Made by a program: the position numbers and the translations under genes. The notes under the pieces are model-generated. The model had not been told where the DNA came from, did not search any database, and worked only from the letters and a program-made list of their open reading frames with translations. A DNA stretch of 46,138 nucleotides from Minisyncoccota bacterium (GTDB taxonomy: Bacteria > Patescibacteriota > Minisyncoccia > Phycocordibacterales > UBA9973). The stretch lies in NCBI GenBank assembly GCA_035548655.1, contig DASZSN010000028.1, positions 1-46,138 of the forward strand, read 5' to 3'. This document shows, in pieces, positions 18,222 through 23,559 of this stretch. Within the stretch, counting starts at the first letter, position 1, and the number at the start of each line of letters is the position of its first letter.

Positions 18222-18554
18222 AAAAGATTCTAGTTGTAAACGTTTCAAATGATTTCCAGATTTCCTAATAGGAATCGGGCAATTAGTACACCTCGGCTGA
18301 ACGTATTACTACGCGTACACCTGGTGCCTATCAACGTGATCATCTCTCACGACCCTCAACGATACCTTATCTTGAAGCTGGCTTCACGCTTAGATGCTTT
18401 CAGCGTTTATCCATGCCGAACATAGCTACTGGGCGGTCCGTCTGGCGACAGAGCCCATAGACCAGAGGTTCGTTCATTTCGGTCCTCTCGTACTAGAAAC
18501 GAATCTTCTCAAGTATCAACGCCTGCAGTAGATAGGAGACCAACCTGTCTTACG

Positions 18555-19349
18555 CTTCTTTTCACACATTGCTGTATGGAATGGACTATAACTTCACCCT
18601 CACTTCGTTCGGGAGTTATCAAGTTCATCAAGTTTGTAAAGTTACAAAGTAGAAACAAAGTGCCTCGTACTTGATAACCTGATAACTTGAAAACTTTCAA
18701 CTCACGCAAAGCGTGGGGCTCAACAGTTAGTCTCTACGGGTCTAAATTAAACAGCTTTCAATGCATTGTCTACAGATTCTATTTCTTCAGAAGTACCAAA
18801 AGTTTTTAGTTCTTCGTCAGTAATAAGTTCTCTGTTTTCTTTGAATATTTCAAGTTGTTTTCTAAGAGCTAGATCGTTGAAATCAGGCTTGCCAATCTGA
18901 TTGAGCATATCTTTAATTCTTTTAAAGTTTGCTTTCATCTTTTGCAATATTTCCTGTCGTTCATTTTGAACATTTTCACCTTCATGGCTCATAGTAGTTC
19001 CCTCGGAATTAACCCCTAATGCAACAAATATAGCATAGGATTGGTCTCTTCCGATATTAGTTGAGCATGTCATCTGTTGTCACCAACAGCGACCGCCGTA
19101 ATTGGATGGTTCTCTGTACCCGCCTCATCAGCGGATATATCTTTCAATCAAAATGACTTGAAATCATCTTGATTGTCTTCGACGAAAAGACTAAAACAGT
19201 AAACCTGTTTATAATTTTTTATACTCCTTGTTTATCTCTCGGGACTCAGACGGCAAGAAAGTCAAAAGTTATCAAGTTAAAAGTTATCAAGAAAATTGCA
19301 AACGCAACTAACTTTACAAACTTTCAACTTTCAACTTTATAACTAACTT
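18555..19349 (-). mobile_element. Group I intron in 23S rRNA at the position equivalent to E. coli ~2593, carrying an unrecognised ORF
   Basis: In rRNA sense the exon flanks read GCTGGGTTCAGACCGT | CGTAAGACAGGTTGGTC, while E. coli has GGGUUUAGAACGU-CGUGAGACAGUUCGGUC. The 5' exon ends in U and the intron ends in G. A group I R-like element GTAGAGACTAAC (18726-18737) and an S-like element GAAGTTATAGTCC (18583-18595) can form P7. The ORF ends just before R, as it does in the second intron. I could not place a convincing P1/IGS near the 5' end. Confidence 0.75.
18747..19073 (-). CDS. Intron-encoded hypothetical protein, 108 aa as listed or 81 aa from ATG 18992, with no recognisable homing-endonuclease motif
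   Basis: This is a long open frame in an AT-rich, stop-prone insert. A GAGGGA box lies 6 nt upstream of the internal ATG at 18992. The product MSHEGENVQNERQEILQKMKANFKRIKDMLNQIGKPDFNDLALRKQLEIFKENRELITDEELKTFGTSEEIESVDNALKAV is predicted helical and K/E-rich. It has no LAGLIDADG, GIY-YIG, HNH or His-Cys box motif. Confidence 0.5.
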   Translation of the reverse strand: MTCSTNIGRDQSYAIFVALGVNSEGTTMSHEGENVQNERQEILQKMKANFKRIKDMLNQIGKPDFNDLALRKQLEIFKENRELITDEELKTFGTSEEIESVDNALKAV

Positions 19350-20024
19350 ACGGTCTGAACCCAGCTCGCGTACCTTTTTAATTGGCGAACAGCCAAACCC
19401 TTGGGACCTTCTCCAGCCCCGGGATAAGGTGAGCCGACATCGAGGTGCCGAACTCCGCCGTCGCTATGGACGCTTAGGCGGAACTAGCCTGTTATCCCCG
19501 GAGTAGCTTCTATCCGTTAATCTTCGGCCGCATCTAATGCGGACCGTCGGTTCACTATGTTCTGCTTTCGCACCTGCTCGACATGGCCGTCTTACAGTCA
19601 AGCTCTCTTATGCCATTGCACTATCGGCACGGTTTCCATTCGCGCCTAGAGAACCTTTGAACTCCTCCGTTACTCTTTTGGAGGATACCGCCCCAGTAAA
19701 ACTACCCGCCAGGAACTGTCTCGGCGCGTTTTTGCCGCGCCGGTTAGGATATGCCCAAGTACAAAGAGGTATTTCACTGGCGACTCCATGAACCCCAAAA
19801 GGTTCACTTCAAAGTCTCCCTCCTATGCTACGTAGTACACGAACATACCCAATACCAAGCTGTAGTAAAGCTTCCGGGGTCTTTTCGTCTAACTGCAGGT
19901 AACCGGCATCTTCACCGGTATTGTATTTTCACCGAGCAAATCCCCGAGACAGTTTCCCAGTCATTACACCATTCGTGCGCGTCGGAACTTACCCGACAAG
20001 GAATTTCGCTACCTTAGGACCGTT

Positions 20025-20839
20025 CATTGCGTGGTAGCTTGTTCAAATGTGTACTGATGTGTGTCAATTATTTACCAAATATGTATTGTGTTAACTCTCT
20101 GTCGCCAGAGAGGTCGGACTATATCTTCACTTCTTCGACAGTCGACGTTCCAATTTCGTCTTGAAGTGTCTTGCGTATAGTCTCTGAGGATTTTTCTACT
20201 TTTTTATGACGTCTTTTAATGAATACTTTCTTTTTCTTCCTTTTCCTTCATTGAGTGTTTCTCGAAGTTTGAGAACTCCTTGTAATCCTGATGGACTAAG
20301 ATGTTCTTTGTTATACATTCGAACAACAATCTGTTTGAAAATTGAAAAATTTTTCTTTTTTCTTGCAGAAATGAAGTGAAATCGTTCGAAAAAAGGAATA
20401 ACTTTTTCATATAATGAAGTACTGTTAGTGACTTCATAATAGACTACTCCATCACTTCTCTCGCGAAGAGTGCCGCATCCAAAGATTTTTTTAATCCATG
20501 AAAGAATCACTCGATCTTTTTGAGAAATATTGAATGAAGCAGTAATTTTCCATTCTTCTTTGTAATCAATTCTTTTTTTGATGGAAAGGTTAAAACTTCC
20601 TTCTCCATCGGTAAAACCAGCAATATAATATCCATCTTTTGGATCTATATTTTTGAGCCAATTTTCCATTTTTTATTTAAGACAGTAGAAATCTTTCCTG
20701 CTGATTGTCTGCGTCTGTATATTGTCACTGCTTCATCGACGTGAAGTGAGTAATACAGAATACTTTTTTTCCACCAGAGGCGGACCAGAGTTTCCAGCAT
20801 ATAGCAAGATTTATTTGCGTAACTACAACGGTCATGTCT
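20025..20839 (-). mobile_element. Group I intron in the helix-69 loop of 23S rRNA (E. coli ~1917) carrying a LAGLIDADG ORF
   Basis: The exon flanks read GGCCGTAACTAT | AACGGTCCTAAGGTAGCG. P1 forms between exon CGTAACTAT (20840-20848) and the intron guide GTAGTTACG (20818-20826), with a U.G pair at the splice site. The R element CAGAGACTATA (20176-20186) and the S element AAGATATAGTCC (20116-20127) are the classical group I core. The terminal base is G at 20025. Confidence 0.88.
20196..20669 (-). CDS. LAGLIDADG homing endonuclease, single-motif (homodimer) type
   Basis: The motif YIAGFTDGEGSF lies near the N-terminus, the size is 157 aa, the tail is basic, and the ORF sits inside a group I intron. 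Confidence 0.92.
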   Translation of the reverse strand: MENWLKNIDPKDGYYIAGFTDGEGSFNLSIKKRIDYKEEWKITASFNISQKDRVILSWIKKIFGCGTLRERSDGVVYYEVTNSTSLYEKVIPFFERFHFISARKKKNFSIFKQIVVRMYNKEHLSPSGLQGVLKLRETLNEGKGRKRKYSLKDVIKK

Positions 20840-21015
20840 ATAGTTACGGCCGACATTCACCAGGGCTTGTAACAGTCAGCAATGCGGATTGCTCCGCATC
20901 ACCGCCGTTAGTTAACCTTCTGGCATCGGTCAGGTGTCACCCCCTATACATCCTCTTACGAGTTCGCAGGGAGCTGTGTTTTTGGTAAACAGTTGCCAGG
21001 AATACTTTCGCTGCG

Positions 21016-21113
21016 CCCCGCCCTCTTTCCCAACAAATACATCAGTTCTACGCGCTTAAGGTCATCAGACGATAAACGTTGTATTGATGTATTTGCGAGG
21101 ATAGAGGGCGGGG
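21016..21113 (-). repeat. Hairpin insertion element, copy A, in 23S domain IV region (partner copy B at 23034-23116)
   Basis: ccccgccctctTtcccaacaaataCa...tatttgcgaggatagagggcgggg has a base stem CCCCGCCCTCT/AGAGGGCGGGG. It replaces a helix that I recall as roughly half this length in E. coli. Confidence 0.7.
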
Positions 21114-22427: not shown

Positions 22428-22563
22428 GGACATCACGCAATGCGCAATGCCAAGTACCAAGTCAAAAGTCATCGCGTTGAAAGTGAGTCGAAAATAATCG
22501 CACTCTCTATATAACGTGACAACTTGAAAACTTGAGACTTGCATCACACCCTGTGTGATGCCC
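22428..22563 (-). other. ~130-nt insertion in 23S helix 25 (a classical IVS site) containing AAGT/CAAG-unit repeats
   Basis: The flanks GGCACGCCGTGAC...GCTCCGACTCCTTGTAAGC correspond to E. coli GGTACGCAGTCAC...GCTCCCACTGCTTGTACG. The insert carries acaacttgaaaacttgagactt and the hairpin gcatcacaccctgtgtgatgc. Confidence 0.55.
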
Positions 22564-22870
22564 GCTCCGACTCCTTGTAAGCATATGGTTTCAGTTCTAT
22601 TTCACCCTCCTTTCGGAGTACTTTTCACCTTTCCCTCACGGTACTAGTTCACTATCGGTCTTTACCTTGTATGTAGCCTTACCAGTTAGTTCTGGCAGAT
22701 TCCTCCCGGCTATTCGTGTCCGGAAGTACTCAAGAAAAACGACAGAAAAGGAAATTGCATTTCAAGTACGGGATTATCACCCTCTATGATGGTGGTTTCC
22801 AACACCTTCCTCTATACAATTTCTTTGTAACTTTTCTCAATAAATTGACGTCGTCCTCTTACAACCCCCA

Positions 22871-22986
22871 AGCATCACGCAAAGCGTGATAATAACCAAT
22901 CATCAAGCACCACTAACCAAACGAGTCGCGCTCGTTGATTATTGATTATTGAAATTTGATTATTGCATCACGCTCTCTGTGATGCT
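22871..22986 (-). other. ~115-nt insertion in 23S domain I forming a long A-U/G.U helix
   Basis: The terminal hairpins are gcatcacgcaaagcgtgat and gcatcacgctctctgtgatgc. The arms aataaccaatcatcaagcaccactaaccaaacgag and ctcgttgattattgattattgaaatttgattatt pair well only in the rRNA-sense strand, where C/A mismatches on the + strand become G.U pairs. Confidence 0.5.
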
Positions 22987-23033
22987 CAGGTTTGGGCTTC
23001 TCCTCTTTCGCTCGCCGCTACTTAAGGAATGTG

Positions 23034-23116
23034 CCCCGCCCTCTGTCCCAACAAATAAACCATTGAATGTACATAGAAATAGTATCAACGATTTATTTAC
23101 GGAGAGAGAGGGCGGG
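23034..23116 (-). repeat. Hairpin insertion element, copy B, in 23S domain I (partner copy A at 21016-21113)
   Basis: ccccgccctctGtcccaacaaataAa...tttatttacggagagagagggcggg is inserted between CGCCGCTACTTAAGGAAT and TTGTTTTCTTTTCCTCC. The first 26 nt match copy A at 24 of 26 positions, and the closing stem is the same. Confidence 0.7.
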
Positions 23117-23559
23117 ACATTGTTTTCTTTTCCTCCAGGTACTGAGATGTTTCACTTCCCTGGGTTCGCACCACACCCCACTTATGTGGGTGGGTCATCG
23201 AGGTTTGCTCGATGGAGTTTCCTCATTCGGACATCTCCGGATCAAAGGTTGTTAGGCACCTCCCCGAAGCGTATCGCCGCCTCCCGCGTCCTTCATCGCC
23301 ATGTAAAGCCAAGGCATCCGCCATATGCTCTTATTTAAATTTCCTATTAGGAAATCTAGAAATCATTTTCATCCTCTCACTCAGATTTTGAGCGAGAGGG
23401 TAAGCCGCTCATTTATCACCGCTGACAAACGATCGGCTCTTCTCTGCCTCTCCTACCTGCAATCCCACCGGGTGGCGAGATTTCTTGAACGCTGGCGCAT
23501 TCAACAATACGAAGGGCAGCATATAGTTTTCAAAAAACACCTATTGATTGATCTGGACG

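Follow-up and report, generated by a model that had tools for sequence, protein, structure and literature searches.

A 23S rRNA gene of a Minisyncoccota bacterium enlarged by two predicted group I introns and five hairpin inserts

How does the only 23S ribosomal RNA (rRNA) gene of a bacterium with a 581,628-bp genome come to span 5,083 nt, and by what route might it still give rise to a ribosome? The gene lies in contig DASZSN010000028.1 of assembly GCA_035548655.1, from a Minisyncoccota bacterium (Patescibacteriota; Minisyncoccia; Phycocordibacterales; UBA9973). We refer to this whole analysed stretch of 46,138 nt as the window; it is contig C28 of the genome's 31 contigs. We consider it highly probable that the locus is the single 23S-5S unit of a bacterium of the candidate phyla radiation (CPR) type, carrying two self-splicing group I introns, at the large-subunit positions L1917 and L2593 of the E. 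coli numbering, together with five hairpin inserts of the RNase III type. Splicing, homing and hairpin excision are steps that we infer from the DNA. The main features, in window coordinates, are as follows.

23344..18262, minus strand: 23S rRNA gene, 5,083 nt including the two introns and the five hairpin inserts
20839..20025, minus strand: predicted group I intron L1917, 815 nt, after U1917 in the loop of helix 69 (H69)
20669..20196, minus strand: gene for a predicted single-domain LAGLIDADG homing endonuclease, 157 aa, in loop L6 of the L1917 intron
19349..18555, minus strand: predicted group I intron L2593, 795 nt, after U2593
18219..18112, minus strand: 5S rRNA gene (Rfam 5S_rRNA, 68 bits), about 42 nt 3' of the 23S gene

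The gene was mapped onto E. coli K-12 rrlB (locus L023:642-3545, 2904 nt), with the numbering verified on the sequences of H69 and the peptidyl-transferase centre (PTC). Block alignment by BLAST spanned E. coli positions 12-2884.

Window 23333-23120: E. coli 12-227
Window 23030-22986: E. coli 233-278
Window 22814-22564: E. coli 293-540
Window 22427-21815: E. coli 553-1163
Window 21649-20839: E. coli 1186-1918
Window 20024-19350: E. coli 1918-2593
Window 18554-18282: E. coli 2594-2884

Both large inserts interrupt the gene between core blocks, after 1917 and after 2593, and domains IV-VI held no further insert. An earlier sequence-only reading of this DNA had described a 23S gene inflated to about 5.1 kb by two introns and at least five helix inserts, had placed the introns at 18555-19349 (795 nt) and 20025-20839 (815 nt), and had given the E. 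coli positions as about 1917 and 2593. The length and the five inserts agreed with our analysis, the directly read junctions reproduced the coordinates to the base, and alignment to rrlB, which it had proposed as a check alongside the large-subunit (LSU) model, gave exactly 1917 and 2593. Its statements that both inserts follow a U, end in G and contain the R/S (P7) core, and that the 815-nt insert has a clean P1 with a U.G pair, also held; to these we can add comparative evidence for the cores and, for the 815-nt insert, a 9-bp P1 and a 7-bp P10. The boundaries of both introns are fixed, with no shift possible. The Rfam LSU_rRNA_bacteria model matched 23344..19289 on the minus strand at 1982 bits, ending early because the L2593 intron breaks the match. 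This was the only LSU match in the genome, which is estimated to be 97% complete, and the PTC sequence is intact in the exons.

At L1917 the upstream exon ends in ...GGCCGUAACUAU (1917), the intron runs AGACAU...CGCAAUG, and the downstream exon resumes with AACGGUCC. P1 pairs exon CGUAACUAU with GUAGUUACG and is closed by U1917.G, P10 pairs GACCGUU with exon AACGGUC, and the last intron base is G. A scan with the Rfam Intron_gpI model (RF00028), which the sequence-only reading had also suggested, matched both inserts, and in both cases the score stayed below the gathering score of 50 bits: 41.3 bits for L1917 (E 3.5e-8) and 29.6 bits for L2593 (E 1e-4). The model spans open reading frames (ORFs) or other insertions of these introns poorly. 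CPR introns have been classified by cmscan E-value and not by gathering score (PMC11270868). Because the scores fell short of the gathering score, we relied on comparative evidence. The 3' core of the L1917 intron was searched against the DNA of 300 other genomes of the order; 22 gave matches, some confined to a conserved core of about 35 nt. The comparison set comprised nine distinct introns, 295-815 nt long, of which five have a LAGLIDADG ORF and four lack one; they align throughout once the L6 insertion is cut out. The covariation sets for the two sites were small (8-9 sequences) and were aligned by MAFFT. For L1917 the core helices gave the following counts.

P3: 54/54 paired cells, compensatory pairs 2/6
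P4: 45/45 paired cells, compensatory pairs 2/5
P6: 36/36 paired cells, compensatory pairs 1/4
P9: 62/63 paired cells, compensatory pairs 6/7

P7 (GACUAU/AUAGUC) is conserved, and the splice-site U.G pair of P1 is present in all nine homologues. The P10 and P1 strands, moreover, covary with the H69 variants of their hosts. Where H69 reads GGUCGU...AACGAUC (loci L033 and L058), the P10 guide is GAUCGUU, facing exon AACGAUC; where it reads GGCGAU...AAUCGUC (locus L046), the guide is (C)GAUU, facing exon AAUCG. Five relatives (loci L003, L009, L019, L020 and L049) have the exact site uninterrupted. Judged by its fold and its homologues, the L1917 insert is a group I intron.

Loop L6, which is only a 21-40-nt hairpin in the ORF-less L1917 relatives, here holds the 157-aa reading frame. 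Its product matches Pfam LAGLIDADG_1 at full length (1-102/102; E 2.5e-21, 76.9 bits) and contains the motif GFTDGEGSF (YIAGFTDGEGSF) with the acidic residue kept. In the PDB it matched I-SmaMI (E 2e-39); it matches each half of the two-domain enzymes I-SmaMI and I-OnuI, as well as the single-domain 5gkk, 3e54 and I-MsoI. The closest endonuclease relatives, 52-78% identical, come from metagenome-assembled genomes (MAGs) of Ca. Nomurabacteria, the Patescibacteria group and Ca. Doudnabacteria, which places the host among CPR-type bacteria. The four closest of six (69-78%, loci L055-L058, the Nomurabacteria one included) were confirmed to lie in 779-823-nt L1917 introns of CPR MAGs, and at loci L059 and L060 (55% and 52% identity) both exon anchors could not be matched. 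The gene is, as far as its sequence tells, intact and single-domain. An enzyme of this kind should work as a homodimer, in keeping with an H69 DNA site that resembles an inverted repeat, and the predicted target is the intron-less H69 site GGCCGTAACTAT/AACGGTCC. Cleavage has been shown biochemically for another CPR enzyme, I-ShaI (PMC11270868).

At L2593 the junctions, again read directly, are ...UUCAGACCGU (2593), then AAGUUAG...AAAGAAG of the intron with its terminal G, then CGUAAGAC. Seven relatives carry homologous introns of 387-687 nt at exactly this site, and three others (loci L003, L008 and L016) have the exact site uninterrupted. The eight introns, that of the window included, have a core in common in which P3 (GCUCAAC/GUUGAGC) shows compensatory changes at five of seven pairs and P7 (GACUA/UAGUC) is invariant. 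Compensatory change in this core extends across genera, which indicates selection for folding. By these comparative features the L2593 insert, too, is a group I intron. A better P1 with a conserved U.G, or a P10, was looked for; none was convincing, and only a weak 4-bp P10 candidate emerged. No endonuclease gene could be recognised in the intron. Relative to the 412-449-nt forms it is lengthened by three insertions, which lie in L1, P8 and the L6 region. The L6-region insertion, of about 290 nt and absent from the relatives' L2593 introns, contains one reading frame.

18747..19073, minus strand: orphan 108-codon ORF in the ~290-nt insertion of the L6 region of the L2593 intron

This ORF had no significant Pfam family and no match in the ESM atlas, and among 5.8 billion proteins it matched only itself. 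With no relative found, it was rejected as a gene and is probably a chance or decayed ORF. A further observation concerns the exon just past the splice site (window 18551-18554). Six of eight intron-bearing alleles read CGUAAGAC there and the other two read CGUGAGAC and CGCGAGAC, while all intron-less alleles read CGUGAGAC, with G to A at E. coli position 2597. This difference may be a co-conversion tract, a change conferring endonuclease resistance, or an adaptation of P10.

Inserts were also examined in the 23S genes of relatives (loci L004-L007, L010-L012, L014 and L016). Most same-genus species are among those that carry an insert of about 205-240 nt exactly at L1931, which the window gene lacks. 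Some relatives have inserts of 860-970 nt near L2500, and one has an insert near L2263. From this variation, the intron complement appears to turn over quickly within the genus.

The remaining length of the gene is due to five helix inserts, which we placed by MAFFT alignment with E. coli and ten relatives. The sequence-only reading had located inserts in helices 45 and 25 (H45, H25) and at three other places, and the alignment put these after E. coli positions 1169 and 544, and after 229, 289 and 1730.

23117..23034, minus strand: insert A, 84 nt, after E. coli 229, in a single-stranded junction of the Rfam consensus
22973..22818, minus strand: insert B, 156 nt, after E. coli 289
22559..22436, minus strand: insert C, 124 nt, after E. 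coli 544, in the H25 loop
21808..21672, minus strand: insert D, 137 nt, after E. coli 1169, in H45
21113..21016, minus strand: insert E, a 98-nt element (62 nt net), after E. coli 1730, in helix 63 (H63)

All five are predicted to form long, near-perfect hairpins with duplexes of 20-40 bp and z-scores from -4.7 to -8.8 (A, -47 kcal/mol, z -8.8; B, -64.1 kcal/mol, z -6.4; C, z -4.7; D, -51.1 kcal/mol, z -6.9; E, -57.8 kcal/mol, z -8.3). By the Rfam structure line, insert B is mainly the variable tip of a domain I hairpin, which has grown from 6 nt to 108 nt, with another 17 nt close by. Insert lengths are erratic among same-genus species. Relatives have 0-13 nt at E. coli 229, most have 2-10 nt at H25, and at H45 they have 0, 5, 6, 85, 151, 202 or 206 nt. 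The 3' (basal) third of insert B is common to relatives; beyond it, no sequence similarity to relatives was found, inserts C and D included. The H25 and H45 inserts are thus extended stem-loops that replace the helix tip and vary among close relatives, as expected of bacterial intervening sequences (IVSs), and the three others have the same hairpin character at non-classical sites. A gene for RNase III is present in the genome (contig C2:21898-22293). Being sporadic, unconserved and predicted to be stable, the hairpins carry the signature of IVSs and not that of conserved expansion segments.

Some of the hairpins are related to one another. Inserts A and E are two copies of one GC-clamped element of about 90 nt, with 78% column identity and shared CCCGCCCUCU...AGAGGGCGGG stems. 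No further copy turned up in the rest of the genome, in the genomes of 300 other members of the order or in the 23S loci fetched from the same genus. A second family, hairpins of about 90 nt built from AAGUU/AACUU repeats, makes up two of the L2593 intron's insertions, those in L1 and P8 (19255-19349 and 18612-18712). It recurs in a ~120-nt insert of the organism's own 16S gene (C2:16560-16680), in the rplJ leader (26838-26945) and, in a member of another family, as the H25 insert of the 23S (locus L009:1420-1514). Among 300 other genomes sampled from the order, 29 gave matches, each with one to four scored places. AAGUU clusters at C9:13957 and C19:68385 were rejected as hairpin copies, being promoter-like AT-rich spacers, and were not counted. 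Hairpins with GCAUCAC...GUGAUGC clamps, too, occur more than once: in the H25 insert and insert B (window 22541-22561 and 22872-22985), and in loci of two other genomes (L046 and L053). Tentatively, and with rather more doubt than conviction, we suggest that the non-intron inserts could be mobile elements, small hairpins that settle in the loops of structured RNA genes, as opposed to slowly grown expansion segments. If true, the inflation of CPR rRNA would come in part from insertions of hairpins resembling miniature inverted-repeat transposable elements and riding on removal by RNase III. The duplicated hairpin and the dispersed AAGUU family are the sole parts of the locus with some fresh value, as a hint at how short rRNA insertions spread.

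Signals for transcription and processing were found on both sides of the 23S gene.

23678..23650, minus strand: promoter TTGACA-17-TATAAT, a 12/12 match of the sigma-70 type and the only one in 17900-24000
23580..23565, minus strand: predicted terminator-like hairpin GCCGCCGAAAGGCGG with a T6 run after it, 3' of the promoter and 5' of the 23S gene
23533..23504, minus strand: weaker promoter-like site, 3' of the terminator-like hairpin
23368..23341, minus strand: 5' strand of a 28-bp processing stem that encloses the whole 23S gene
18274..18247, minus strand: 3' strand of the processing stem, pairing with 23368..23341

RNAcofold of the 23S flanks predicted 28 uninterrupted intermolecular pairs at -64.1 kcal/mol (shuffled flanks, -42.8 +/- 3.1). 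A stem formed by the flanks of the 23S is the usual entry site of RNase III. The promoter and terminator calls are consensus matches only. Upstream of the promoter lie a mechanosensitive-channel-like gene (23764-24450) and then a hairpin. Here the sequence-only reading, which had listed a protein gene, a terminator and a consensus promoter upstream of the 23S, was correct, and we add the further terminator-like hairpin between promoter and gene. Since this hairpin lies about 65-80 nt past the perfect promoter and is followed by a second promoter-like site, either promoter may drive the rRNA. One possibility for the stretch with the perfect promoter and the hairpin is a small RNA, another an attenuator within the leader of the rRNA; 23565-23678 had no Rfam match.

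The same reading had also seen neither a linked 16S nor a spacer tRNA, and both points held. The sole 16S lies on a different contig (C2), within the window Rfam gave no small-subunit match on either side of the 23S-5S unit (22.8 kb upstream, 18 kb downstream), and the window's only tRNA is a tRNA-Ser at 3872-3959. The 16S and 23S genes are thus non-adjacent and more than 1.5 kb apart, the arrangement by which unlinked rRNA genes are recognised. Genome sizes in the same order range from 0.4 to 1.1 Mb. The 16S gene itself (C2:16182-17842, 1,661 nt) carries its ~120-nt hairpin insert near E. coli ~1165-1175, a position set by eye, and the RNase III gene is about 4 kb away on the same contig.

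We also compared the stretch with sequencing runs. Three soil DNA runs contain it, and one DNA run and three RNA runs were compared in detail. Error-free contigs of the soil metagenome DNA run bridge all four intron-exon junctions with 0 mismatches, at a depth of about 7-10x, the same as that of the single-copy flank. An assembly artefact is ruled out, with the limit that this DNA run may be the source sample itself. The RNA runs share only 11-16% of the stretch's words and give the introns next to no coverage, which says nothing on splicing either way. Apparent RNA 'joints' across the H25, E. coli 229 and H45 inserts and across L2593 were rejected as evidence of splicing; they come from relatives without the inserts and have other letters between. 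A sediment metatranscriptome contig (147 nt, 2 mismatches, window 22709-22855) overlaps insert B at its 3' base by about 38 nt, which is too short to distinguish retention from cleavage.

How, then, might this gene yield a ribosome? The 23S-5S unit would be transcribed as one precursor, in which RNase III would cut the flanking 28-bp stem. Both introns would splice themselves out by guanosine-initiated two-step transesterification, with P1 and P10 aligning the exons, and this would restore the sequences of H69 and the peptidyl-transferase ring, neither of which could be expected to tolerate an insertion of 800 nt. The LAGLIDADG homodimer would act on the pseudo-palindromic, intron-less H69 DNA site and so drive homing. 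The L2593 intron would have lost its endonuclease and become an immobile ribozyme padded with dispersed AAGUU-type hairpin repeats. The five helix inserts would most likely be excised by RNase III without ligation, leaving a fragmented 23S, and some might be retained as expansion segments.

Several observations weigh against this scheme. The title of reference 11 in PMC1995217 speaks of an unspliced 23S group I intron in Simkania. Neither intron attains the Rfam gathering score, both matches being significant and sub-threshold. The P1 of the L2593 introns consists of seven invariant pairs followed by a C x C mismatch, and only two of the eight members, window included, have a G opposite the splice-site U. 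The RNA contigs are conserved rRNA blocks only, 90-99% identical and from other organisms, and the helix inserts may be either cut out or retained. We think it unlikely, though a serious contender, that the introns are spliced but all five helix inserts persist in mature ribosomes, forming expansion segments on the surface. Their position suits this idea, since helix tips and junctions, where all five lie, leave room for extra RNA to protrude, and the part of insert B common to the order looks like a lineage-typical helix. H25 and H45, however, are classical RNase III IVS sites (PMC11270868), the near-perfect duplexes are of a length that suits RNase III, the enzyme is encoded in the genome, and the absence of the inserts, or the presence of unrelated ones, in same-genus species argues against a ribosomal role.

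Much less probable, in our view, is that the rRNA keeps one intron or both, as reported for Simkania, or that L2593 is a decaying ribozyme in need of a host factor. Such an account would draw on the L2593 intron's missing endonuclease, three large peripheral insertions, mismatched P1 and Rfam score of just 29.6 bits. It conflicts with the location of position 2593 in the peptidyl-transferase region and of 1917 in H69 at a subunit bridge, with the presence of the introns in the sole 23S gene of the genome, and with the compensatory changes that have kept the L2593 core helices across genera. Least credible of all is that metagenomic mis-assembly produced the structure, or that it is a dead rRNA pseudogene. 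The assembly is a metagenomic one in 31 contigs, and rRNA regions are prone to chimeras, but independent contigs of the DNA run cross every intron junction without mismatch at the depth of the flanks. The 28-bp flanking stem is perfect, the exons of this only LSU gene score 1982 bits with an intact PTC, and relatives have the same architecture. We retain, as highly probable, the reading of a 23S-5S unit with two self-splicing introns and five RNase III-type hairpin inserts.

One observation lies outside this unit. A third group I intron, at C1:6464-6734 (locus L025, about 1450-1800, minus strand), scored 55.4 bits with Rfam, above the threshold. Within it lies an ORF with an HNH-like CxxCH...H motif, and after it comes an apparent tRNA 3' half (T-arm and acceptor ending in CCA); ARAGORN made no call for the split tRNA.

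The locus, as we read it, provides a base-accurate and comparatively supported annotation of an intron-rich CPR 23S gene with exact E. coli-numbered sites. Pipelines for rRNA annotation cut the gene short at its second intron here, and they should benefit from these sites, the intron-less alleles and the ORF-plus and ORF-minus forms; this material should also help in studying the cycle of homing-endonuclease gain and loss. Published work already covers the phenomenon, the insertion sites and the endonuclease family, and no new question is opened.

The 23S gene of Coxiella burnetii, which Raghavan et al. reportedly described in 2007, is said to have two group I introns (L1917 and L1951) and an IVS in helix 45. 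It would resemble the window gene in being a single 23S in a reduced genome, with an L1917 intron, a second intron and an IVS of the RNase III type; it would differ in that its second intron lies at L1951 and not at L2593, and in having one IVS instead of five. Another parallel in the introns is given by Synechococcus sp. C9, in which Haugen et al. (2007) found L1917, L1931 and L2593 in one 23S gene, with an L1917 ORF that starts in P6 (PMC1995217). The L1917 introns of Synechococcus sp. C9 and Thermotoga subterranea are 743-774 nt long, with a single-motif LAGLIDADG ORF of 168-181 aa (PMC1995217). The site is the same here, in an 815-nt intron with a 157-aa ORF in L6, but the window's ORF stops before P7 whereas theirs runs through the core. 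Unlike the gene of Synechococcus sp. C9, the window gene has no L1931 intron (same-genus species have inserts of about 210 nt there), and its L2593 intron has no endonuclease.

The helix inserts can be set beside the H25 and H45 IVSs of Salmonella, Leptospira, Campylobacter and other bacteria (PMC11270868), with which they share the helices, the form of stem-loops of about 100-150 nt and the sporadic occurrence among close relatives. The window gene has inserts at three extra sites (E. coli 229, E. coli 289 and H63), and excision here is predicted only. Its layout is that described for unlinked rRNA genes (Brewer et al., bioRxiv 10.1101/705046), with the 23S-5S apart from the 16S in an organism of the small-genome, slow-growth type, and we see no difference from them.

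A further comparison is with the survey of 348 CPR 23S genes by Tsurumaki et al. (2024), in which 82% had insertions, with maxima of 16 insertions per gene and 5,750 bp in total (PMC11270868). There, group I introns are biased to the 3' half of the gene, LAGLIDADG_1 ORFs, mostly for single-domain enzymes, occur mainly at 1917, 1931, 1952, 2593, 2604 and 2657, ORF-plus and ORF-less introns are scattered at the same sites, and short non-intron insertions lie at known RNase III IVS sites (PMC11270868). The sequence-only reading had noted that the class is known for CPR bacteria, and both sites found here are indeed standard ones for LAGLIDADG_1-bearing introns (PMC11270868). The window gene shares with the survey's genes its single copy, multiple insertions, introns at 1917 and 2593 and short inserts in H25 and H45, and it differs in nothing of kind. 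What it adds to them is a near-identical pair of hairpins at the unrelated positions E. coli 229 and H63, and an L2593 intron swollen by AAGUU-type repeats.

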